DNA of 32,000 nt from Massilicoli timonensis (GTDB taxonomy: Bacteria; Bacillota_I; Bacilli_A; Erysipelotrichales; Erysipelotrichaceae): assembly GCF_900199515.1 (NCBI RefSeq), contig NZ_LT963433.1, forward strand, positions 240,001 through 272,000, read 5' to 3'. This document shows, piece after piece, positions 21,799-32,000 of the stretch. Position 1 is the first letter of the stretch, and each line of letters opens with the position of its first letter. A program made the translations under genes and the position numbers. The notes beneath the pieces are model-generated. The model saw only the letters and a list, made by a program, of their open reading frames with translations, was not told where the DNA came from and searched no databases.

Positions 21799-21889
21799 TC
21801 ATAACCACTAGTAAACTGGTGGTATGGCTCCACCCTATAAGGGTATATTGTTACGCGTGGCCCTTCGACCACTGAGGCCTGACAGCCAC
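21799..21889. repeat. cluster of overlapping, mutually exclusive hairpins (candidate IS200-type subterminal end)
   Basis: There are four hairpin elements. (1) TCATA-A-CCACTAG-taaa-CTGGTGG-TATGG, 12 bp including two G-T pairs that pair only in a plus-strand RNA. (2) GGTGG-N7-CCACC. (3) ACCC-tataa-GGGT. (4) GTGG(C)-N-CCAC / GCCAC. The cluster lies immediately left of the IS1182 insertion point. Confidence 0.35.
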
Positions 21890-21905
21890 AACACTTTTAC
21901 CTACT

Positions 21906-23752
21906 GGGGCTGTAACAGTTGAAACAGCTCCTCAAAATAAAAAATGACAGGAAAGCGATTAAGCAGACCTGTCTTTTTTGTGTATAATATAAATATGAAC
22001 ACGAATACATATACACACCAGAATTATAAAACATATTCTGACGGAATGCAATTGTGTCTGCCGTTGGATTTATCAGTTTCTATTGACAGCGACGATCCTA
22101 TGTGGTCTTTTCTGGATGCGGTAGAAGGAGTTAATTTCAGTAAATATGTAAAGTCGATCCGCTCCAATAATACACATTCTCATGATCGCGGCATGCTGTT
22201 GAAAACTTTGCTGTTTGCCTTCATGGAAGGTCATCGTTCTTTATCTGAGATAGCTCATCTATGCAAAGTAGATACCCGCTATCTCTATCTTTCCAATCAG
22301 GAAAGGCCAAGCTTCATGGCTTTTCAGAGAATGACACAGGATCTTACGGAATCCATTGATGATATCTTCTTTGACATCAGCCAGCACATAGCACAGGATC
22401 TGATGCTATGTGATACGGATATACAATATATAGATGGTACAAAAATAGAAGCAAATGCACACAAAAATTCCTTTGTCTATAAAAAAAGAATTTTGAATGC
22501 AGAGGAAAGATTATTTCAAAGAATAAGCGAATCCATCTTTCAGCTGAATTTTCATCATGGATATGCTTATCCGCTAAAGCAGACATATACAGCACTTGAA
22601 ATTGGCTATATCTGCCAGTATCTAATGGAGACCATGGTAAATAACAATATAGAGATCAAGTATGGAACAGGACAGAGGAAAAGCGAAATACAGAGAGAAT
22701 ACGATGTTTTTCTTGGATATTATGGAAAACTGATGGAATATGAATACTGGCTGAGCATCATAGGAAAGCGAAATTCGTGTTCCAAAGTAGATCTGGATGC
22801 GACCTTCATGGCGACAAAATGGGACTACTATAATCAGAGCGGAATTACAAGAGCGTGCTATAACTGTCAGATAGCAGTAAGCGATGGAATTATTGTAAAC
22901 AGCAATGTATATCAGTCACCGGTGGATACAGCGACATGGCAGGATTTTATTGAAAGATATAAGGAAAGAACAGGAAGCTATCCAAAATGGCCGGTGGCCG
23001 ATGCAGGATATGGAAGCTATGATAATTACTTTTTCAATATCATACGAGGAATAAGGCTTGTACAGAAATATAATATGTATGGAAAGAAGGAAGATAAAAA
23101 ATTCCAAAAGAAAATCTATGATGCATTGAACCGGAAAGAAAATGAAGAAGGCTATAAGGTCTGTCCAAGCGGCAGAGTATTTGACCAGTATAATGGCGAC
23201 AGATACAGAAACACACTTCAGGACAATCTGATGATCACGCAGTTGTACAGTGAAAAGGAACAATGTGCAGGGTGTAAAAGGATAAAGGAATGTACAAGAG
23301 GAAACTATCGACAGATCGGGAAAAACATAGCAATGAATGAATTCAGGAAAGAAGTAGATAAAAATCTATCCACAGAAGAAGGAAAGGAAATGAAAAAGCA
23401 AAGAAGCATACAGGTAGAAGGAGCGTTCGGAGTCATAAAACAAGATTTCAAATTCACAAGATTCAGTAGAAGAGGAATGAAAAACGTGAAAATGGAATTT
23501 CTTTTGGTATGTCTGGGCTATAACTTAAAAAATATCATATATTCAGACAAAAACAGAATGGACAAAACCTAAGATCATAAGGAAAGTTTTCCACAATTTG
23601 AAGACAGGATAAAAAAGATGTTTTTATCATGCCAAAATTTCAATTCTGATAATCGAGAGATAATCTTAAACGTTCATTCTGATAACAAAAAAGAAAAAAG
23701 GCCGTAACAGCCTAAATGATATTTTATTAAATCACTTAACTGTTAAGACCCC
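21906..23752 (+). mobile_element. IS1182-family insertion sequence (about 1.85 kb)
   Basis: Imperfect terminal inverted repeats: left GGGGCTGTAACAGTTGA, and right (reverse complement) GGGGTCTTAACAGTTAA, matching at 13 of the first 17 positions. A single DDE transposase ORF lies inside. I found no flanking direct repeat. Confidence 0.75.
21995..23572 (+). CDS. IS1182-family (IS5-like DDE) transposase
   Basis: The N-terminus (MQLCLPLDL...LLKTLLFAFMEGHRSLSEIAHLCKVDTRYLYL...PSFMAFQRM) and C-terminus (VEGAFGVIKQDFKFTRFSRRGMKNVKMEFLLVCLGYNLKN) are typical of IS1182. The start is taken at ATG 21995. Confidence 0.85.
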   Translation: MNTNTYTHQNYKTYSDGMQLCLPLDLSVSIDSDDPMWSFLDAVEGVNFSKYVKSIRSNNTHSHDRGMLLKTLLFAFMEGHRSLSEIAHLCKVDTRYLYLSNQERPSFMAFQRMTQDLTESIDDIFFDISQHIAQDLMLCDTDIQYIDGTKIEANAHKNSFVYKKRILNAEERLFQRISESIFQLNFHHGYAYPLKQTYTALEIGYICQYLMETMVNNNIEIKYGTGQRKSEIQREYDVFLGYYGKLMEYEYWLSIIGKRNSCSKVDLDATFMATKWDYYNQSGITRACYNCQIAVSDGIIVNSNVYQSPVDTATWQDFIERYKERTGSYPKWPVADAGYGSYDNYFFNIIRGIRLVQKYNMYGKKEDKKFQKKIYDALNRKENEEGYKVCPSGRVFDQYNGDRYRNTLQDNLMITQLYSEKEQCAGCKRIKECTRGNYRQIGKNIAMNEFRKEVDKNLSTEEGKEMKKQRSIQVEGAFGVIKQDFKFTRFSRRGMKNVKMEFLLVCLGYNLKNIIYSDKNRMDKT

Positions 23753-23764
23753 TTTTTTATCACT

Positions 23765-24055
23765 TTATTTCACCGGCACACCCGTAAACGGGTCAATAAA
23801 TTCTTTCATACTCATTTGATCCGCTAGTTTATCTTCCTGCAACTGGGTGTGGATATATTCCCTGATTATCTCTTCATTCTTTCCTACTGTATCTACAAAA
23901 TATCCTCTTGCCCAGAATTTTCTGTTTCCAAATTTATATTTCATATTTGCATGCCTTTCAAATATCATGAGCGTTGATTTGCTTTTCAAATATCCTATGA
24001 ATCGAGCTACACCAAACTTTGCAAAGGGCGAAAACAGACCGTGAAACGGGCTACT
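23765..24055 (-). pseudogene. tnpA: IS200/IS605-family TnpA (Y1/HUH transposase) remnant, C-terminal ~90 codons only
   Basis: The open frame reads ...PFHGLFSPFAKFGVARFIGYLKSKSTLMIFERHANMKYKFGNRKFWARGYFVDTVGKNEEIIREYIHTQLQEDKLADQMSMKEFIDPFTGVPVK. This aligns with residues ~62-152 of Salmonella IS200 TnpA as I recall it (HIHMLLEIPPKMSVSSFMGYLKGKSSLMLYE...FWCRGYYVDTVGKN...DYIKHQLEEDK...SPFTG). An in-frame stop lies at 24056..24058 and there is no N-terminal half. Confidence 0.8.
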
Positions 24056-24071
24056 TTACTTGCAAAGTATA

Positions 24072-24400
24072 GTGTGTTATACGCTCTGTCGGCGTTGCCG
24101 TAAATGCCGTTGCCGCCAGGGAGGGCAAGGGCGTTTGAAACGGCAGGAAAACAGAGCTGTGATTGTATGACGTGAAGCCGCAAGCGCAAAACTGGTTTCA
24201 TCAGCAGACAGGACGTATATGAAAGCCCCTTCCCTCGTACTACGCTCCGACTTATGGACAAAGTGTCCCGAAGTGTAGACACACTCCCCCAACAAATAGC
24301 AGGATAGCGGGCAACTGTCAAAGCTGAAATGAATGGGTTTGAACCAGGCCTTGACCAGTGACTGGCTCGACTTACTTTGCTATCTATACCAAGAAGTTTA
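24072..24400 (+). ncRNA. group II intron-like domain I fragment A (ORF-less, no domain V seen)
   Basis: It begins GTGTG (24072). It shares GAAAACAGA (24147) and a 29-nt block (24247..24275, 23/29 identical, ungapped) with fragment B in the same orientation. GGACAAAGTGTCCCGAAGTGTAGACAC resembles the GGAAAGUGUCUGAAACCUCUAGUAC region of Ll.LtrB domain I, from memory. No protein-like ORF is present. Confidence 0.4.
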
Positions 24401-24402
24401 GA

Positions 24403-25380
24403 TTAGTTTTTCAGTTCGTCAGCGTGTTCTTCACAATGCTTCTGTACTTCTTTCAACCATGTTTCATACCAATACCATGTTTTTGATATTAGTACCCCAA
24501 AACTATATTTTGTATCTTTCGCATCTCGAGACTTCCACAATTCTGTATGCTTGTTAATTGAAAACTTATTATATCCTTTTTCCTTCATCAAAGATACAAT
24601 CTCGCTTGGCAAATACTTTCGTTTCTCTGTTTCTTTCAAAACAGCATATGTTTTCTCAATGCCCTCTGCAAGTGGAGAATCGCTTTTGATAAATTCAACG
24701 ACTTGGTCTGCCTGCCCTTTTCTTTTTGCATTTATTGGAACAAAAAGGACGCGATACGCATAGCGCGAACTTGCCAGTGCTTCCTCTGAAAGAAGACTTT
24801 CAAAATCTACAACAAAGTTTTTAACATTTGAAGTAATATGCACATTATCATGTAGCATATCACGCTGCTCTGGTGTCAATGGGGAAAACTGAATTGCAAG
24901 GGATAGTTCTTTACTAAGGTTATATTTATCCCCGAATAGTTTGCAGATGTAATAATCAAAATTTAATGCACAAGCCTGTAATTTTGCACTCAAAAACTCG
25001 TCAATCTTATCTGTCATTTGATGTTCGATCTCATGACGAACCCCAATAAGGAAACGCAAATTTGTTATCGTATCACTATCTAAAGGACAGTCCTTTTCAT
25101 TAAGACACCGTTCAAGTTCCCAATGTTTGTATGCACCATATTTGGTTTTATCATATACTTTCTTTTTCCCCACATAACGATAGTAACGATAGTCGATACC
25201 TTTGCTTCTAAAAAAGGCATGAAGTAAATAAGTCCATCCAATCACAGCCAGCGTGATAAACGTTTCTGCCTTGAATGTGACTTGCGGATTATTATATATT
25301 TGTACCGCAGCAAGCATCGCTTCGCGAGCTTTTTTTATCAGCACTGTTTTTACAGATTTTACTCGTCTTTTCCTTGGCAT
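24403..25380 (-). CDS. hypothetical protein, DUF3644-like N-terminus, with an HExxH motif
   Basis: A 325-aa ORF with a GGAGGTG RBS. The N-terminal segment KKAREAMLAAVQIYNNPQVTFKAETFITLAVIGWTYLLHA resembles what I recall of DUF3644 proteins. HEIEH is encoded at 25021..25035. The gene is AT-rich like its two upstream neighbours. Confidence 0.7.
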   Translation of the reverse strand: MPRKRRVKSVKTVLIKKAREAMLAAVQIYNNPQVTFKAETFITLAVIGWTYLLHAFFRSKGIDYRYYRYVGKKKVYDKTKYGAYKHWELERCLNEKDCPLDSDTITNLRFLIGVRHEIEHQMTDKIDEFLSAKLQACALNFDYYICKLFGDKYNLSKELSLAIQFSPLTPEQRDMLHDNVHITSNVKNFVVDFESLLSEEALASSRYAYRVLFVPINAKRKGQADQVVEFIKSDSPLAEGIEKTYAVLKETEKRKYLPSEIVSLMKEKGYNKFSINKHTELWKSRDAKDTKYSFGVLISKTWYWYETWLKEVQKHCEEHADELKN

Positions 25381-25440
25381 ACGGCACCTCCGTTCCGAGT
25401 ATAGAAAACCAACTTTTGACCTAGGTATCAGAAAATATAT

Positions 25441-26529
25441 TTAATCTTCTTCCTCTTCATCCATATTCATTTCAAGTTTATAGTAGATGTCTATATCACG
25501 AATTATTCCGTCAATGTCACTATTATTAAGCTCTGAAGTCCACAGTTGAAGTTCATTAATGGTAATAATTTCTTCAATCGCTTTATGGTATCTTTCTTCC
25601 AAAACAGTCATACCACTTGAACGCTGTTCAATATATTTTTCTAATTTATTCAAAACATTTTTCTTGTTCTGTTTAGTTTTAATTACAAAACTAATTGGGA
25701 AGTGCATGACTTTATCGATATCCAGTAGATATTTATCGTAGTTGTTTACCTCAGTCACCTGGAAGAATCTACCTATCGGCCTCATAACAAAATCGATACC
25801 ACCGTCATTTGCATTAGTCCTTCCAGTTTTGAACAATTCAAGAACTACTTCATCAATAGTATCCCTTGTATACCCGAAGAACACGGTAATATTTTTATAA
25901 TGGTTTTTCAAAATGGCATAGCTGATAATCTCAAATATACGAGCTTCGGCATCTTCTGTAAGTAAAGCATTGATTTTAGCTTTTTTCTCAGAGTAGTCTG
26001 TCAACCCTCTCAGTTCTTCCAAGATACTTATTAAGGCATGATCTTTTGCCATTAAAAGATCGATATACTTTTTAATGATTTTGCAGGAAACAAGGCTTAT
26101 GTCATGTCCCTCGACATAGATATAGTCAATATGGATAAGATACTTTCCGTTATTAACGATAATTAGGTCGTTTACAACATCCTTAATTTTGTTGTGAAAT
26201 TCGCCATTCACACGAGAGTTTAACGCGTGATTTTGTAATTTACTCCCACCATAGAGACTGCGATAGAAATTGAACAGTCGCATATAATCATATCCCTCAA
26301 ATTGGCGATATGCTTCTTTTTTGTTATAGAAATCCTTTTGATAGAAGAACAGGATAGAATAAATCGCATAAATATTTGCCAAACTTCTACGAGTTTTGCT
26401 ATTACCGTGAACTGCTTTCATTTTCTTGTCTAAATACTGAAGCAGAGGACTTTTATCATAAATCTTTTGATAATCTGTAGGATACTCTGCTTTGAGAATA
26501 TCCGAAACAAAAGTTTCTGTAATCTTCAT
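25441..26529 (-). CDS. putative restriction endonuclease (PD-(D/E)xK / Mrr-cat-like C-terminal half)
   Basis: A 362-aa ORF whose ATG lies 1 nt after the methyltransferase stop codon, with a GAGGAG RBS inside the methyltransferase 3' end. The C-terminal segment FEIISYAIL...NDGGIDFVMRPIGRFFQVTEV resembles the D...QxK core of Mrr-type nucleases. Confidence 0.55.
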   Translation of the reverse strand: MKITETFVSDILKAEYPTDYQKIYDKSPLLQYLDKKMKAVHGNSKTRRSLANIYAIYSILFFYQKDFYNKKEAYRQFEGYDYMRLFNFYRSLYGGSKLQNHALNSRVNGEFHNKIKDVVNDLIIVNNGKYLIHIDYIYVEGHDISLVSCKIIKKYIDLLMAKDHALISILEELRGLTDYSEKKAKINALLTEDAEARIFEIISYAILKNHYKNITVFFGYTRDTIDEVVLELFKTGRTNANDGGIDFVMRPIGRFFQVTEVNNYDKYLLDIDKVMHFPISFVIKTKQNKKNVLNKLEKYIEQRSSGMTVLEERYHKAIEEIITINELQLWTSELNNSDIDGIIRDIDIYYKLEMNMDEEEED

Positions 26530-26530
26530 G

Positions 26531-27505
26531 TTATTCTCCTCTTACATATTTTGATTTAGCATTTGTCTTGCGTGCTTTTATTTTTTCAAGGCTTTTTCCG
26601 TTCCTTGTCTTGGTAATGCCGGTACGTCTTAATCCCATCTCATAATATTCCTCATTCATATCAATGCCTACGCCTACTCGTCCGAGACGAACTGCCACAG
26701 CCGAAGTGGTAAATGATCCTGAAAATGGGTCGAGAACAACATCTCCAGGATTGGACGATGCTTTGATTATACGTTCCAATAGAGCTTCTGGTTTTTGTGT
26801 TGGATGATTTTCGTACTCATCCATCTTAAACCTCACTCTACTAAAATCCCAAACATTTCCGGGAACTTTTTTGGAACTGTATGGCTGAGGTGGATTTTTT
26901 CTATAATCAATCAATTTCCGTTTAGCACCTGTTTTTGCTTCGACAAGAATATCTTTGTAATTGAAAGTATAAGAAGACTTACTCGTCTTTGAAATCATTA
27001 GGATAGGTTCATAGAGAGAGCCATACATTTTCTTTGACTGTACTCCGGAACTATCGTATGACCAAATAATTCGGCATAATACGTTATATTTTTCCGATGC
27101 AAATACATCCAAATACGGCATATGTTGTGTCGCTGTCATAAAGTACATTGTTCCATTACCTGAGAGAACACGCATACATTCATCAATCCACGTTTTACAC
27201 CATTCTATGTAAGCATGAACACTTTCCCACTTATCACTGTTATTACCAAAATCCTTGCCAATGTTATATGGGGCATCAGCAAAAATAAGTTGTACGGATT
27301 TGTCTTTCATTTTTTTTAGAACAGAAAGACTATCACCAAGAATGACCATTGAATTATTGTTATTCATATTTTCTTCTGTTAATTGAGTATCGAACAATGA
27401 ATTGAAATCAAAAACTATCTCTGGATATGTTTTCTTAATTGGTTCCGAAATAGATATATCGTTATCAAATGTCAATGTCAGTTGTCCTTCGCTACAAATA
27501 TTCAT
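26531..27505 (-). CDS. beta-class N6-adenine/N4-cytosine DNA methyltransferase (N6_N4_Mtase family)
   Basis: Motif IV is IFADAPYN (DAPY at 27266..27277). It lies upstream of HPTQKPEALLERII and of motif I (VVLDPFSGSFTT). This motif order is that of the beta class. Confidence 0.9.
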   Translation of the reverse strand: MNICSEGQLTLTFDNDISISEPIKKTYPEIVFDFNSLFDTQLTEENMNNNNSMVILGDSLSVLKKMKDKSVQLIFADAPYNIGKDFGNNSDKWESVHAYIEWCKTWIDECMRVLSGNGTMYFMTATQHMPYLDVFASEKYNVLCRIIWSYDSSGVQSKKMYGSLYEPILMISKTSKSSYTFNYKDILVEAKTGAKRKLIDYRKNPPQPYSSKKVPGNVWDFSRVRFKMDEYENHPTQKPEALLERIIKASSNPGDVVLDPFSGSFTTSAVAVRLGRVGVGIDMNEEYYEMGLRRTGITKTRNGKSLEKIKARKTNAKSKYVRGE

Positions 27506-27561
27506 ATCATTTTCCTTCCTGTGCTATTTGATGATTAAAAAGAATATCTTCTTTGAATTTT

Positions 27562-28362
27562 TTATTTTCCAGCATGCTCCATCACCTTTTTTGCCAGCTT
27601 TTGAAACAGGCCTGCGGTTTCTTCGTCCATTGGCGTAAGCTGTTCTATCTGTCCGGCAATCATCGCTGTTACATCATCAATGGAAATCGTGTTTTGCTTC
27701 CGCTCCGCCAGTGCGTCCCGCATGGTCTGAAACATGGCGGCGGTCACAGTTTCCCCCGGCTGTTCTCCGTTGTTAATGTCTTTCTTAATATCCCGCAGGA
27801 TAGCAAGGAACACGCTCTTGATTTTCTCAATCTCCGCATTATGCTCCTCCATCTTCTGTACGTTCAAAAGCTGTAAATCCTGCCTTGCTTCTTTCCTGTG
27901 TTCCGCGTGTTCTTTCATCAGGTCGGACAGGGAAACCGTCGCTATCTCGATAAGCTGGTTTCTTGCGATTATCCCCTTTACCACCGTATCTTGAAAATAA
28001 ATCCGTATCAAATCTATCAGCTTCGGAAAATTCCTGTGTTCCAATAGGCGGTTAAGAATTTGCACATCAACTGTGCCCGTCATAATCCCCCTCACAGCTC
28101 CCTCGGATAAGCCCAATTCAGAAATATCATAGCTTTTGCGGACGCTCACGGTGGACAAGCCTAGTATGTAGTCCGTTGATACCTTAAATTTCTTTGCCAC
28201 ACCTATGAGAATATCACTGCTGACCGTTCTTGTTTCGCCGCTGACAATCCGGCTTAACTGGGAAGCGGAAACGCCGATCTTCTCCGCAAGTTCCTTTTGT
28301 GTGATGTGGTTTCTGTTGCATAAATCGGAAATCCGCTGTCCCGGTGTTCTGGGTAAAGCCAT
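27562..28362 (-). CDS. XRE-family helix-turn-helix regulator with a long (~200 aa) C-terminal extension
   Basis: MALPRTPGQRISDLCNRNHITQKELAEKIGVSASQLSRIVSGETRTVSSDILIGVAKKFKVSTDYILGL is an HTH_3-type domain. The start at 28362 follows GGAGGAGG. Confidence 0.85.
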   Translation of the reverse strand: MALPRTPGQRISDLCNRNHITQKELAEKIGVSASQLSRIVSGETRTVSSDILIGVAKKFKVSTDYILGLSTVSVRKSYDISELGLSEGAVRGIMTGTVDVQILNRLLEHRNFPKLIDLIRIYFQDTVVKGIIARNQLIEIATVSLSDLMKEHAEHRKEARQDLQLLNVQKMEEHNAEIEKIKSVFLAILRDIKKDINNGEQPGETVTAAMFQTMRDALAERKQNTISIDDVTAMIAGQIEQLTPMDEETAGLFQKLAKKVMEHAGK

Positions 28363-28389
28363 AGACAGGCACCTCCTCCGCATATCACC

Positions 28390-28419
28390 ATTATACAGCA
28401 TAATTGCAAAAATGCAATT
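28390..28419 (-). promoter_or_regulatory. promoter of the HTH gene overlapped by a perfect palindromic operator
   Basis: The minus strand has -10 TATAAT (28390..28395) and a -35-like TTGCAT/ATTGCA. The inverted repeat AATTGCA-aaaa-TGCAATT (28402..28419) covers the -35 and the spacer. Confidence 0.5.
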
Positions 28420-28442
28420 CTCAAAGTGTAAACTTCATCAAA

Positions 28443-28461
28443 ATGCAATTTTCGCAAAATT
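28443..28461. promoter_or_regulatory. second operator-like site
   Basis: The ATGCAATT half-site is repeated (28443..28450, also at 28412..28419). It overlaps the perfect palindrome AATTTT-cgc-AAAATT (28447..28461). Confidence 0.35.
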
Positions 28462-28480
28462 CCGGGGATTGTATTTTTTC

Positions 28481-28700
28481 GTGTAGACTTAAGGTAGTTC
28501 ATCGATAAACAGCACCTTGAAAACAGAATGACCATCCGAAAAGAAATATCCGGCGGGGAAAACACGCAGAGAGCCGACTTCCGGCCAAAGTGCCCAGAGG
28601 TGGTTTCGGGACAAGTTGTCCCGAAGTTATGGGGAACGTGCCAACGCCAGAAATCCTTTCGGGGAGAACAGCAACGGAGAACAATGGAGGGATGTATGAT
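28481..28700 (+). ncRNA. group II intron-like domain I fragment B (5' part only)
   Basis: It begins GTGTA. Three collinear 8-mers, TTAAGGTA (28489), GAAAACAG (28520) and CCGAAAAG (28537), are spaced by 22 and 9 nt here. In the 5' region of Ll.LtrB as I remember it the same 8-mers are spaced by 20 and 9 nt. Further on come CGGGGAAAACACGCAGAGAGCCG and CCAAAGTGCCCAGAGG, followed by a GGGACA-agt-TGTCCC hairpin. There is no RT ORF and no domain V before the permease terminator. Confidence 0.45.
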
Positions 28701-28714
28701 AGACAATCCATATA

Positions 28715-28736
28715 AAAAGAGGCTGCACGCCTCTTA
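28715..28736 (-). terminator. rho-independent terminator of the NCS2 permease gene
   Basis: The minus strand reads AAGAGGC-gtgca-GCCTCTT followed by TTTTA, about 10 nt after the stop codon. Confidence 0.65.
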
Positions 28737-28745
28737 TGAGATCGA

Positions 28746-30068
28746 TTAGATCAGAAATCCGAAGTAAGCGATAAAGATGATGACCAATACCCAAACGATC
28801 CAGTTCACTTCTTTGGCTTTACCGCTCGCTAACATTGCCACCGTATAAGCGATGAAGCCCAAAGCGATACCATTTGAAATGGAATAAGTCAGGATCATCG
28901 CAATTACCGTAATGAAACCGGCTGTCGCAAATACAAAATCATCCCAGTCAATACCGCCTAACTGCTGTGCCATCAGGATACCGACCACGACCAGCGCCGG
29001 TGCTGTTACCGCATTGGTCGCAAGTGATAAAATGATCGGTGAAATAAAGATCGACAATAAGAACATGATACCGGTCGTTACCGCCGTTAAACCAGTTCTG
29101 CCGCCAACCTCAACACCGGAAGTGGATTCCACAAAGGAAGTAACCGTAGAAGTACCGAGCGCCGCACCGGCAACCGTACCGATCGCATCCGCTAATAACG
29201 CCCGTTCGACATTATCCAATTCTCCTTTTTCATTTACCAGTCCAACGCGGTTCGCAACCGCAACCAGTGTACCTGCCGTATCGAAGAAATCGACAAATAA
29301 GAAGGAGAAAATAATGATAAACGCCTGTCCCGGATCCGCAAACAGTTCTCCAAAACCGTCCATAAATCCACCAACTGTATTCATTGAGAAATCAGTCGTG
29401 ATGACCCCGTCGATCGTCGGCATACCTTCCACGCCCGCAAAGCCGCAGATCAAGCCGATCAAAGCCGTGATCACCATACCGATGAAAACCGCTGCCGGCA
29501 CTTTCTTTGCCAACAGTGCAACCGTAATCAAAATACCGAAGATCGCCAGCAGTACCGTTGGTTCTTTGAAAGAGCCGATACCGACAAATGTAGATTCATT
29601 GGCAATGATGATGCCGGCATTTTTTAAGCCGACAAATGCGATAAAGAAACCGATTCCGGCGCCGATTGCCAGCTTTAACTGCTTCGGGATCGCATTGATG
29701 ATCACTTTACGGATTCCGGTAACCGAAATGATGACAAAGATCACACCGGATACAAATACCGCAGCTAATGCCGCCTGCCAGCTGAAACCGCCTACTAAGC
29801 AAACATTAAACGTAAACAGCGCGTTTACCCCCATACCTGCCGCAAGCGCAACCGGATAGTTTGCGATAAGCCCCATCAAGATCGATGCGAATGCCGCGGA
29901 AATGGCAGTTGCCATAAATACCGAATGCAGATCCATACCGGTCTGTGCCAGCATGCCCGGATTGACGCCCAAAATGTACGCCATCGCCAGGAAGGTGGTA
30001 AGTCCGGCAATGATTTCCGTTTTGACCGTCGTGTTCTTTTCTTTCAGATGAAACAACTTTTCTAACAT
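28746..30068 (-). CDS. NCS2-family purine (guanine/hypoxanthine/adenine-type, AzgA-like) permease
   Basis: MLEKLFHLKEKNTTVKTEIIAGLTTFLAMAYILGVNPGML is the characteristic N-terminus. It is a 440-aa polytopic membrane protein. Confidence 0.9.
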   Translation of the reverse strand: MLEKLFHLKEKNTTVKTEIIAGLTTFLAMAYILGVNPGMLAQTGMDLHSVFMATAISAAFASILMGLIANYPVALAAGMGVNALFTFNVCLVGGFSWQAALAAVFVSGVIFVIISVTGIRKVIINAIPKQLKLAIGAGIGFFIAFVGLKNAGIIIANESTFVGIGSFKEPTVLLAIFGILITVALLAKKVPAAVFIGMVITALIGLICGFAGVEGMPTIDGVITTDFSMNTVGGFMDGFGELFADPGQAFIIIFSFLFVDFFDTAGTLVAVANRVGLVNEKGELDNVERALLADAIGTVAGAALGTSTVTSFVESTSGVEVGGRTGLTAVTTGIMFLLSIFISPIILSLATNAVTAPALVVVGILMAQQLGGIDWDDFVFATAGFITVIAMILTYSISNGIALGFIAYTVAMLASGKAKEVNWIVWVLVIIFIAYFGFLI

Positions 30069-30126
30069 ATTCTACCTCTTTTCTGCCCTTTTCTTCTAAA
30101 ACCCCTTTGATAAAAAAGACTTTTTC

Positions 30127-30155
30127 ATTATAAAACAAATTTCACACAGTTTCAA
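30127..30155 (-). promoter_or_regulatory. sigma-A promoter of the permease gene
   Basis: The minus strand reads TTGAAA, a 17-nt spacer, then TATAAT, about 55 nt upstream of the ATG. Confidence 0.55.
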
Positions 30156-30287
30156 ATTTTTTTGAATTTTCTATGTATATTTTTTACTGCATGTTTCTGC
30201 AATTATGTGTTTTTTGTGTTTCTATTTCCGCTTTCATGGTAAAACAACAGAAAAACAGGTACAATAAGAACAAGAAATGAGGTATTT

Positions 30288-31538
30288 ATGGAAAATCAAG
30301 AAAAAGAAGCGGTGCTCGTTGTTCTCACTTCGCTGCAGGGAAAAGAAAATACAGCCTATTGGGATGAATTTTTAGAGTTGGTAAAAGCGGCGGATATGGA
30401 AGTGGTCATGCACGCCAAACAGCATATGAAAACAGTGAACAGCGCGACCTATATCGGAAGCGGCAAGGTCAAGGAAATCAAAGAGATGCTGGAAAGCACT
30501 GCGGTCGATGTCGTTTTGATCGATCATGTATTAACACCTTTACAAAGCCGCAATCTGGAAAAGGCATGGAATCGCCCGATCATGGATCGCAATGCTTTGA
30601 TACTGGAGCTTTTTGAAACAAGAGCGGTAACGGCAGAGGCCAAACTACAGATCGAAGCCGCCAAATTAAATGCGCTGCTGCCAAAACTGGTCGGTTCTAC
30701 TTCCTATTTAGGCAGACAAAGCGGCGGCAGAAACAAAGGAGCCGGAGAAAAGCAGTTGGAGCTAGATCGGCGTGTCATCAAGCGGCGCATCGGTGAAGTG
30801 CGTAATGAATTAAAGAGACTGGAAAAACAGCGTGCCGTAAGAGCGGCAAAGCGGCAGCGAAACGATCTGCCGATCGTCGCTTTGATCGGCTATACCAATG
30901 CGGGAAAATCCACGATCATGAACCAGCTGCTCGCCCGCTTTCAGAAAAAAGCAGCGAAACAAGTGCTGGAAAAGGATATGCTGTTTGCGACCTTGGATAC
31001 CAGCGTACGGCGCATTTCCCTCGACGCGCACCGGCAGTTTCTGCTCATTGATACAGTCGGTTTTGTCAGCGACCTGCCTCATGAACTCATCGAAGCATTT
31101 CATTCCACTTTAGAACAGATCAAAGAAGCGGATCTGTTGTTGCAGATCGTAGACGGCGCCAATCCCCATTATCGAGAACAGATGCAGGTAACAAGCGATA
31201 CACTGCAAAAACTGGGTGTGGAAAATATCGCGATGCTTACCGTTTTCAATAAAGCCGATCGGTTACAGGAAAAGCATCCGCGCTGTTTACGGGAAGATCG
31301 TGTCATGCTATGTGCGAAAGCGGAAAAGGACATTGATTTTCTATGTGATCTCATCAGCAAACGCCTATATCCGCTGCATCAAAAATGGAAACTGAAGATC
31401 CCTTATGATGATGCATTGCTTGCACAGCTGCGCAAACAGGGAATCTTGTCTGAGATTCACTACCTTGATGACGCGATGCTGGTGGAAATCGATGCAGATG
31501 CAGAACGCATGCGCAAATGGGAAGCCTATCTGGCATGA
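30288..31538 (+). CDS. hflX: GTPase HflX
   Basis: HflX N-terminal domain, followed by G1 (GYTNAGKST), LFATLDT, and G3/G4 (DTVGF, NKAD). Confidence 0.9.
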   Translation: MENQEKEAVLVVLTSLQGKENTAYWDEFLELVKAADMEVVMHAKQHMKTVNSATYIGSGKVKEIKEMLESTAVDVVLIDHVLTPLQSRNLEKAWNRPIMDRNALILELFETRAVTAEAKLQIEAAKLNALLPKLVGSTSYLGRQSGGRNKGAGEKQLELDRRVIKRRIGEVRNELKRLEKQRAVRAAKRQRNDLPIVALIGYTNAGKSTIMNQLLARFQKKAAKQVLEKDMLFATLDTSVRRISLDAHRQFLLIDTVGFVSDLPHELIEAFHSTLEQIKEADLLLQIVDGANPHYREQMQVTSDTLQKLGVENIAMLTVFNKADRLQEKHPRCLREDRVMLCAKAEKDIDFLCDLISKRLYPLHQKWKLKIPYDDALLAQLRKQGILSEIHYLDDAMLVEIDADAERMRKWEAYLA

Positions 31539-31571
31539 GTTTGATCTGATCAAACAAGCACTGAAATAAAA

Positions 31572-31611
31572 AGCGGTTTTCTGTTGATGATCAAAAGAAA
31601 ACTGCTTTTTC
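31572..31611 (+). terminator. rho-independent (probably bidirectional) terminator between hflX and purN
   Basis: AGCGGTTTTCT-loop-AGAAAACTGCT (11 bp, one G-T pair) followed by TTTTT, with an A-run upstream. Confidence 0.65.
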
Positions 31612-31620
31612 TATGCGAAA

Positions 31621-32000
31621 CTAACCCAAAGGAATCGTGCCGTCCGCGATCTTTGCAACGATTTCCTTTAGAAAACGATGCTCTTCTTCCAATACCCGGG
31701 CTGCCAAAGTATCGGCATTATCATCTTCTCGCACCGCTACTTTTCTGACTGCCACGATCTCGCCGCTGTCGTATTCCTCATTGACCCGATGAATGGTGAT
31801 GCCGGTTTCGGTTTCGTGATTGGCAAGTACTGCTTCATGTACATGTTTTCCATGCATGCCCTTTCCGCCATAGCGCGGCAGCAGGCCCGGATGAATATTG
31901 AATACACGCCCATGATATGCCTTTAACACGGCTTCCGGCAGTTTTTTCAAATAGCCGGCTAAAAAGATCATGTCCGTATGATGATCTGCCAGCACCTGCA
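31621..32000 (-). CDS. purN: phosphoribosylglycinamide formyltransferase (partial; N-terminus beyond the window end)
   Basis: ...IFLAGYLKKLPEAVLKAYHGRVFNIHPGLLPRYGGKGMHGKHVHEAVL...GITIHRVNEEYDSGEIV matches the PurN core. The frame is open to the window edge. Confidence 0.9.
   Translation of the reverse strand, partial: QVLADHHTDMIFLAGYLKKLPEAVLKAYHGRVFNIHPGLLPRYGGKGMHGKHVHEAVLANHETETGITIHRVNEEYDSGEIVAVRKVAVREDDNADTLAARVLEEEHRFLKEIVAKIADGTIPLG

Follow-up and report, generated by a model that had tools for sequence, protein, structure and literature searches.

Three closely spaced genes at positions 24,403 to 27,505 of a 32,000-nucleotide stretch of Massilicoli timonensis DNA (contig NZ_LT963433.1, positions 240,001 to 272,000 of the forward strand; this whole stretch is called the window) raise the question of whether they form one defence system of a new kind or separate modules that share a location. 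In their order of reading, they encode a DNA methyltransferase (M), a nuclease-like protein (R) and a third protein (gene 3). A preliminary description of the cassette called it a candidate non-canonical defence module, considered the third gene unexplained, and offered two readings: a type II restriction-modification (R-M) system with a hitch-hiking effector of the abortive-infection (Abi) type, or an undescribed three-component system. The evidence favours the first of these. The cassette is likely to consist of two independent defence modules, an M-R pair and a gene for a protein with a HEPN domain, which in one lineage move jointly on a horizontally acquired island of 6.9 kb. The second reading is not supported, as the M-R pair is of an ordinary kind and gene 3 has no conserved linkage to it. 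The coordinates of all features are collected in Table 1.

Table 1. Features of the cassette and its surroundings, numbered from the first letter of the window
Feature	Position	Strand	Basis
Beta-class YhdJ-family N6-adenine DNA methyltransferase, predicted (type II M)	26531..27505	-	Pfam, NCBIfam, PADLOC, PDB relatives, RefSeq name
Type II restriction endonuclease, predicted, cognate to M (R)	25441..26529	-	PADLOC model, RefSeq name, plasmid homologs, linkage to M
R-M / HEPN module junction	25381..25440	-	holds the ribosome-binding site of the HEPN gene, GGAGG
PDC-S19/DUF3644 protein, 325 aa: N-terminal HEPN domain (predicted RNase) and C-terminal alpha/beta domain (gene 3)	24403..25380	-	PADLOC, Pfam, structural model
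HEPN (DUF3644) domain, residues 14-195	24796..25341	-	Pfam PF12358
Predicted catalytic motif R115-H-E-I-E-H120 (HEPN R-x4-H)	25021..25038	-	conservation
C-terminal domain, residues 196-325, about 5 beta-strands and 3-4 helices	24406..24795	-	family conservation, AF2 model
Strain-specific genomic island, 6,909 bp	21800..28708	.	replaces 84 bp between a VCA0040-like gene and a xanthine/uracil permease gene
IS1182-family transposase, intact	21944..23572	+	NCBIfam transpos_IS1182 1.8e-69; Pfam DDE_Tnp_1_6 2.7e-24
IS200/IS605 Y1 transposase fragment, C-terminal part, 74 aa	23765..23989	-	Pfam Y1_Tnp 1e-10, profile positions 72-121 of 121
XRE-family helix-turn-helix regulator, 279-aa ORF	27562..28401	-	HTH_3 2.5e-12, residues 28-79

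The methyltransferase and endonuclease pair

The three open reading frames (ORFs) lie on the minus strand exactly where they had been placed, and the ORF list of the window gives them lengths of 324 (M), 362 (R) and 325 (gene 3) amino acids (aa). The AT-rich, GATC-poor character ascribed to them was also confirmed. The guanine-cytosine (GC) content of the cassette is 35.1%, compared with 45-47% in the flanks, and its GATC density is 1.3 per kb, compared with 12.0-13.6 per kb in the host flanks, which is a ten-fold deficit. Direct reading of the junctions agreed with the earlier account of a single nucleotide between M and R, an R ribosome-binding site (RBS) inside the M gene and 60 nt before gene 3. 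The stop codon TAA of M occupies 26533-26531 and is followed by one base (26530) and the ATG start codon of R at 26529, and the AGGAG RBS of R lies at 26540-26536. Gene 3 has its own GGAGG at 25391-25387. Because no terminator-like site was detected in the junction between R and gene 3, transcriptional read-through from R into gene 3 is plausible.

The M protein matches Pfam N6_N4_Mtase (2.3e-56), the YhdJ-type equivalog NF008572 of NCBIfam (440.7 bits, cut-off 292) and the PADLOC model MTase_II (7.1e-122). Its motif IV, DAPY (about residue 78), precedes motif I, DPFSGSFTT (about residue 259). This order marks the beta class and bears out the assignment made in the preliminary description. M.RsrI, M.MboIIA and CcrM are among its PDB relatives, and the identical protein of Massilicoli timonensis is named "adenine-specific DNA-methyltransferase" in RefSeq. 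The R protein matches the PADLOC model REase_II (PDLC03455, 2.2e-75) over residues 8-360 of 362, and the RefSeq name of the identical protein of this species is "restriction endonuclease".

The association between the two proteins was followed in a set of 80 metagenomic loci seeded with the endonuclease, in which M was counted in the 65 loci, and the slot downstream of R in the 58 loci, that had enough flanking sequence. A homolog of M stands directly upstream of R in 65/65 of these loci. Plasmids carry related pairs as well. The L. plantarum plasmid NZ_CP035173 carries a gene annotated as yhdJ, a 1-nt gap and a "restriction endonuclease" (M 68% and R 56% identical), a layout identical to that of the window, without a HEPN gene. 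The Escherichia coli ColE1-type plasmid NZ_AP027820 carries a helix-turn-helix (HTH) controller, a "type II restriction endonuclease" and a convergent yhdJ-type methyltransferase (M 62% and R 37% identical); unlike the window, it has the M gene in convergent orientation, a controller whose nearest relative is C.AhdI, and no HEPN gene. A lead to Esp1396I for the enterobacterial plasmid homologs was rejected, because this controller is distant from C.Esp1396I. Several related R-M loci have an 81-104-aa Cro/C1 (HTH_26) protein just upstream of M, which is the classical position of a controller. As judged from their sequences, M and R are an ordinary, already annotated type II R-M pair.

YhdJ of E. 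coli methylates ATGCAT, and together with the match of M to the YhdJ equivalog this was the source of a lead for the recognition site of the pair. ATGCAT occurs 8 times in the window compared with 22 expected. Under a Markov model this depletion vanishes, since TGCA is itself underrepresented, and in 457 kb of flanking DNA from genomes that carry this R-M pair, avoidance of ATGCAT reaches only rank 5 (observed/expected 0.47). Site-avoidance statistics do not bear ATGCAT out, and it is not claimed as the recognition site.

The third gene and its HEPN domain

Gene 3 had been described as having a DUF3644-like N-terminus, and this was confirmed by a match to PF12358 over residues 14-195 (5.5e-55, 186.2 bits compared with a cut-off of 27.6, profile positions 2-181 of 183). 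DUF3644, which overlaps the EC042_2821 family, was placed in the HEPN superfamily and found in R-M operons (Anantharaman et al. 2013, PMC3710099). The protein also matches the PADLOC model PDC-S19 (PDLC04948, 2.9e-154) over residues 3-322 and profile positions 4-323 of 325, and six more PDC-S19 models in PADLOC match it. Gene 3 can thus no longer be called unexplained, since DUF3644 has counted as HEPN since 2013 and the PDC-S19 match is full length. A run of all three cassette proteins against PADLOC, which had been proposed as a check, returned MTase_II, REase_II and PDC-S19 matches.

An HExxH motif had been read in gene 3, and the protein had been taken for a putative metalloprotein. The letters H-E-I-E-H are indeed present at residues 116-120, and the string is invariant among close relatives (identity of at least 68%). 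An exhaustive homolog search returned 1,565 clusters at E <= 0.001, from which 78 relatives of 26-67% identity were aligned; 75 of them are ungapped at the motif. R115 is kept in 73/75 and H120 in 73/75 of these distant relatives. The first histidine of the supposed HExxH varies: position 116 carries N in 36 sequences, H in 29 and D in 7, and K takes the place of E117 in 19. A polar residue after the R is typical of the HEPN R-x4-6-H motif. The only invariant columns of a 54-sequence alignment (A6) are W49, N107, R115 and H120. The pattern of conservation identifies R115 and H120 as the probable R-x4-H RNase signature of HEPN proteins, not as part of a zincin motif. The letters therefore belong to R115-x4-H120, and the metalloprotease reading was rejected because H116 and E117 are not conserved, R115 and H120 are, and the fold matches HEPN.

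The fold was examined with AlphaFold2 (AF2). The final model, built from the diverse 54-sequence alignment, has a predicted local distance difference test (pLDDT) value of 82.9, compared with 65 for a first model from a shallow alignment; pLDDT is at least 85 across most of residues 11-120. For both models, the top PDB matches in Foldseek are all HEPN proteins. These include 2hsb, which is AF_0298 (template modelling (TM) score 0.72, normalised to target), 7bxo (HepT), 5yep (SO_3166) and 6tug (Csm6), together with 1wol, 1ufb and 1o3u (the proteins ST0689, TT1696 and TM0613). No zincin is found in the top 50 listed structural matches. The predicted HEPN fold is thus called from the consistency of the top matches and from the TM-scores, with no competing fold.

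Conserved positions in the C-terminal domain include D225, F230, K249, F273, W282 and W302, and pLDDT exceeds 90 for residues 252-325. The domain has no Pfam family and no structural match in PDB or BFVD, and with a single Cys it is not a zinc ribbon. Among the distant family members, many reach a length of about 390-430 aa and have an extra N-terminal extension of about 90 residues (P0250, P0251, P0253, P0258, P0261 and others), which the window protein does not have.

Linkage between the pair and the HEPN gene

The linkage of the HEPN gene to this R-M pair was assessed in both directions. A species-level genome scan seeded with the HEPN protein returned 393 loci that span many bacterial phyla as well as archaea, with full-length identities of 52-95%, and 80 loci were kept. 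The M and R of the window occur in only 1/80 of these, and this single locus (L005) is a 95%-identical copy of the same element. In the other loci, genes of type I R-M prevail among the immediate neighbours of the HEPN gene: upstream stand about 24 type I S and 26 type I M subunits, downstream 17 HsdR and 4 BrxL proteins. A conservative count of neighbours per locus, in which each gene was assigned to its best family, lengths were subject to thresholds and BrxL marked BREX, placed 29 of the 80 HEPN genes within type I R-M operons, 18 next to type I components and 8 in BREX, and left 25 without these markers. The distances from the HEPN gene to its hsdS and hsdR neighbours typically range from -40 to +46 nt. 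As verified locus by locus, the gene order is HsdM, HsdS, HEPN, HsdR in one such locus (L010), and PglX, an uncharacterised 431-aa protein, HEPN and, further on, BrxL in another (L039).

The nearest HEPN relatives (83-88% identity) adjoin different type II modules. One stands beside another restriction endonuclease and Vsr (L001), one beside another methyltransferase (L002), and one beside a C5 methyltransferase and Vsr, next to a MobA/MobL relaxase (L004). On a Flavobacterium plasmid, a homolog of 52% identity stands without an annotated R-M gene beside it.

In the opposite direction, the HEPN gene directly follows R in 3/58 endonuclease-seeded loci, and all three belong to a 94%-identical lineage. 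A further locus (L083) carries the R-M pair at 94-95% identity without the HEPN gene. Elsewhere, the slot after R holds unrelated genes, including those for a Schlafen/AlbA_2 protein, a membrane protein and a leucine-rich-repeat (LRR) protein. DNA homology to the R-M loci without HEPN ends at 25435-25438, just beyond the stop codon of R, and homology to HEPN genes from other settings covers 24403-25394, the ORF together with its RBS. Since the homology breaks gene-exactly, the HEPN gene is a discrete module that was joined behind the R-M pair. These results show that the HEPN gene has no specific linkage to this R-M pair. The co-occurrence check proposed in the preliminary description thus went against a three-component system, and the counts of 65/65 for M with R, and of 3/58 and 1/80 for the HEPN gene, support the reading of a hitch-hiking effector. 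The outcomes that the preliminary description had named as a refutation, an ordinary type II pair and a third gene unlinked to it in other genomes, are essentially what was found.

In a sister lineage of the R-M pair (L086-L090, R 86% identical), a 439-aa protein with a Schlafen/AlbA_2 domain is encoded 22-27 nt downstream of R (e.g. L086:7113-8429), in the same slot as the HEPN gene of the window; in further lineages this slot is taken by an 8xMP membrane protein or a BspA-type LRR protein. It seems that variable cargo docks at the 3' end of this R-M pair.

Among the HEPN loci, eight (L038-L043, L049, L068) encode a conserved 429-432-aa protein 2-11 nt upstream of the HEPN gene, and this protein lies between PglX and HEPN in the BREX copies (e.g. 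L039:6700-7992); L049 carries it and is not confirmed as BREX by the markers. Three of these proteins were scanned and have no Pfam match, and the L039 copy has no PADLOC match either. The 429-432-aa protein and the HEPN protein may form a two-gene embedded module. In two loci (L021:4673-5857 and L049:9036-10220), a gene for a 395-aa AAA_21 ATPase (AbiEii-like, HEC-01-type) lies directly downstream of HEPN. Genes of comparable size are present in L017, L058 and L069. PADLOC flagged HEC-01, PDC-S05 and PDC-S23 among the downstream neighbours of HEPN, and therefore several embedded candidates stack in the same R-M or BREX operons.

Comparison with known systems

The PDC families are phage defence candidates taken from genes embedded in type I R-M, BREX and DISARM (Payne et al., 10.1101/2024.01.29.577857). 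The window protein agrees with PDC-S19 over its full length and in its single-gene form. The PDC-S19 family is embedded in type I R-M and BREX, whereas the window copy is appended to a type II R-M pair and is not nested in such an operon. With the DUF3644/EC042_2821-type HEPN proteins, it shares the PF12358 match, the R-x4-H motif and the setting in an R-M operon. The domain fusions listed for this family are with winged HTH, endonuclease and zinc-ribbon domains (PMC3710099), whereas the window protein has an alpha/beta C-terminal domain of about 130 residues with one Cys.

HEC-08, which consists of DUF3644 and zinc ribbons, protects against phage and requires the motif His (10.1101/2024.01.29.577857). 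It has the N-terminal DUF3644 HEPN domain and the closest PDB structures (e.g. SO_3166/5yep) in common with the window protein. Gene 3 does not encode HEC-08, since its product lacks zinc ribbons and its PADLOC matches at E <= 0.1 include no HEC-08 model.

The Ishtar HEPN proteins (Ist1/Ist2) clear plasmid RP4 with only a transient viability cost (10.64898/2026.07.06.735840). They have an N-terminal HEPN domain (DUF4145 or DUF3644) and a C-terminal part of 5-7 strands and 3 helices, and they are single genes with a patchy distribution near defence genes. The C-terminal part of the window protein, with about 5 strands and 3-4 helices after residue 196, resembles the published description of Ishtar, and the two were compared by description only. 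Membership in Ishtar was rejected for lack of detectable homology. The table of Ishtar homologs (Table S3) contains 0/5 signature peptides taken from the window family, and hhalign gave a probability of 0.2% when the shallow alignment (A1) was compared with 12 Table S3 sequences, which did not include Ist1 and Ist2 themselves. The Ishtar homologs read in Table S3 are also shorter, at 164-261 aa compared with 325 aa for the window protein.

PrrC is a classical HEPN nuclease that is almost exclusively embedded in type I R-M (PMC3710099; 10.1101/2024.01.29.577857). The family of the window protein resembles PrrC and RloC in that a HEPN-type nuclease gene nests in restriction operons, for which a role as second line behind restriction is plausible. 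PrrC and RloC have an N-terminal ABC-ATPase, whereas no ATPase family was found in gene 3 in the Pfam, NCBIfam and PADLOC scans; gene 3 is therefore not PrrC-like in architecture. The window family also differs from PrrC and RloC in that it occurs beside type II R-M, in BREX and apparently alone.

Proposed mechanism and alternative explanations

If the cassette consists of two independent modules, M would methylate adenine and thereby shield host DNA, and R, which would be translationally coupled to M through the 1-nt gap and the RBS inside M, would cut unmethylated incoming DNA. The HEPN gene would have been joined just past the stop codon of R with its own RBS kept, and it would probably be read through from the R-M transcript. 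In its product, R115-x4-H120 is predicted to form a metal-independent RNase site, probably as a dimer, and the C-terminal domain is a candidate sensor that probably has a regulatory or sensing role. The protein would be silent until an invader is sensed; RNA cleavage would then lead to growth arrest or to clearance of the invader, and HEPN would serve as a second line behind restriction. A role as a single-protein RNase is the most likely one because of the tested relatives HEC-08, Ishtar and PrrC, and gene 3 is accordingly predicted to encode a stand-alone RNase of the abortive-infection type. The RNase activity is suggested by the motif and by these relatives. The trigger, the co-transcription and any functional cross-talk with the R-M pair are likewise postulated parts of the proposal, whereas the identities of the genes, the motif, the fold, the borders of the modules, the missing specific linkage and the island are what the sequence data show.

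Several points weigh against this reading. R has no Pfam, NCBIfam or PDB sequence match that would give it a nuclease fold, and site avoidance points to no recognition sequence of the pair, with ATGCAT only at rank 5. The co-transcription of R and HEPN is suggested solely by the lack of a detectable terminator. The Foldseek matches of gene 3 have weak E-values (0.02-2), with TM-scores of 0.55-0.72 that are normalised to target. No published test of PDC-S19 was found in the literature searched, so that its defence and RNase activities are deductions. In addition, the tight and recurrent hsdS-HEPN-hsdR embedding could signify functional coupling to R-M in general, in which case the word "independent" would be only partly true.

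This last point leads to the explanation that competes with the two-module reading on the subject of autonomy. The HEPN protein could be a general guard of the PrrC kind, held inactive by the host R-M or BREX complex or monitoring it, and firing its RNase when a phage anti-restriction factor disables that complex. The setting of the family speaks for such a role: 55/80 family loci are within or next to operons of type I R-M or BREX, in many cases separated from the genes on either side by 0-45 nt, the nearest relatives adjoin type II modules, PrrC itself, with its HEPN nuclease domain, keeps almost exclusively to type I R-M, and the conserved C-terminal domain of gene 3 could be the sensor. 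However, the host systems (type I, several type II, BREX) are mechanistically so different that one protein could hardly be a physical partner of them all. Apparently solitary copies exist, including that of the Flavobacterium plasmid and the 25/80 loci without markers, the tested relative HEC-08 works as a single gene, and embedding may be no more than a sign of safe docking sites and common regulation, as "guilt by embedding" presupposes. The guard is thus rather unlikely. Much less probable is one integrated three-component system in which the third protein needs M, R or both, for example as an effector triggered by this R-M pair. The genes are co-oriented and tightly spaced without a detectable terminator, and together with the XRE gene they move as a unit in one lineage (the window, L005, L081, L084 and L085). 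Against such a system, the HEPN gene is found in few loci of the R-M family and is absent from L083, the pair is found in a single HEPN locus, the nearest HEPN relatives stand beside unrelated type II modules, the Flavobacterium plasmid copy has no annotated R-M, and homology breaks exactly at the gene borders.

The two remaining alternatives concern gene 3 itself. It might have no part in defence and instead help the island or the R-M pair to persist, either as a toxin for addiction or stabilisation or as a HEPN regulator without catalytic activity. HEPN domains also occur in the toxins of toxin-antitoxin systems, HepT and SO_3166, which are among the best structural matches, and in regulators such as MtlR (PMC3710099), and the gene lies on a mobile island with insertion sequence (IS) elements. 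Against this, the gene has no antitoxin-like neighbour (MNT), its catalytic R and H are conserved, the neighbourhood of the family consists overwhelmingly of defence genes, and the DUF3644 relative HEC-08 gave phage defence, which makes a role outside defence very improbable. A zinc metalloprotease-like accessory protein acting through HExxH can practically be dismissed. Only the invariant letters in close relatives suggest it, while the variation at H116 and E117 in distant relatives, the HEPN assignment of the Pfam family and the HEPN character of the structural matches contradict it.

The genomic island and its other contents

The cassette lies on a strain-specific island. The island is missing from 8/8 other Massilicoli timonensis contexts shown for the identical permease protein, in which the VCA0040-like gene follows directly; this permease protein is present in many other assemblies. 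Comparison of the window with an empty-site locus (L164) by blastn gave 99.6% identity up to 21799 and 99.1% from 28709, and GATC density and GC content both fall inside the island. Its contents in order are the IS1182-family transposase, the IS200 fragment, HEPN, R, M and XRE. The mobile-element surroundings and the neighbouring XRE gene mentioned in the preliminary description were thus found, in the form of one intact transposase and one C-terminal fragment.

The segment between the IS200 fragment and the HEPN gene (23990-24400) contains only unsupported ORFs (104 aa, no Pfam family) and has no Rfam match. Within it, 23996-24055 and 24215-24327 are kept at 84-87% in L084 and L085, and overlapping parts at about 80-84% in L005; the segment may be what decay has left of the 5' half of the IS200 element. 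A palindromic hairpin motif, GGACAnnnTGTCCCGAAGT, occurs at 24250-24274 and at 28583-28627, with one copy downstream of HEPN and two copies upstream of XRE, one of which is a perfect 10-bp stem, TTCGGGACAAGTTGTCCCGAA. The hairpin copies bracket the XRE-M-R-HEPN block, and the downstream copy lies within the part (24215-24327) common to L084, L085 and L005. They could be the ends of a transferable unit, subterminal hairpins of the IS200/IS605 type, or terminators. An Rfam scan of the whole window gave no match.

The XRE gene lies 56 nt upstream of M, in the slot that a small C protein occupies in related R-M loci. Among the endonuclease-seeded loci, its homologs are found upstream of M only in the HEPN-bearing lineage (L081, L084, L085). 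It shows no resemblance to the small C proteins of related loci, among them that of L086, or to C proteins of solved structure, and its best PDB relatives, the Xre regulator of ICEBs1 and PezA, are regulators of mobile elements. A role as the controller of the R-M pair is not supported for these reasons. The exact 279-aa ORF is absent from the protein collection, in which the three cassette proteins and HflX are present, and its annotated start is probably internal, e.g. Met14. The gene has an island-like GATC density of 1.2 per kb and a host-like GC content of 47%, and its homology with L084 stops inside the gene at 28223. These features suggest a mosaic or recombinant regulator.

The host DNA of the window (1-21799 and 28709-32000) has a composition of its own. 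GATC is enriched, with 355 sites in the window compared with 157 expected from shuffles, and its observed/expected ratio is 1.37 even with a maximal-order Markov model. TTTAAA (0 compared with 11.7 expected) and GTGCAC (0 compared with 6.9 expected) are absent from the host DNA. The GATC excess and the two missing sites hint at methylation of the Dam type and at further restriction systems in the organism.

Significance of the locus

Gene 3 is already catalogued as a defence candidate, PDC-S19, and the first two proteins are already named in RefSeq. The analysis removes a false lead, as there is neither a new three-component system nor a metalloprotein in this cassette. It also provides natural comparisons for the contribution of PDC-S19: near-identical R-M loci with the HEPN gene (the window, L081, L084) can be set against one without it (L083), and isogenic-like strains of M. 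timonensis with and without the 6.9-kb island offer a second comparison. The C-terminal domain, which has no known fold match, is the obvious place to seek the trigger.

The census of neighbours quantifies how promiscuously the HEPN gene attaches to restriction-type systems, and it has a bearing on whether embedded genes work together with the systems that host them or simply occupy the same place. Sequence alone cannot decide between an autonomous HEPN protein and a monitor of host R-M, the latter being the less expected outcome. A speculative and rather improbable extension of the monitor is that PDC-S19 proteins are guards indifferent to the type of R-M, whose C-terminal domain senses a common signal of failing restriction-type immunity. 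With the same low likelihood, such a signal might be a DNA-mimic anti-restriction protein or unprocessed foreign DNA or RNA. If this were true, it would explain why a gene for about 320 aa docks gene-exactly at or within type I, several type II and BREX operons in bacteria and archaea, and the window would represent a newly formed partnership with a type II pair.

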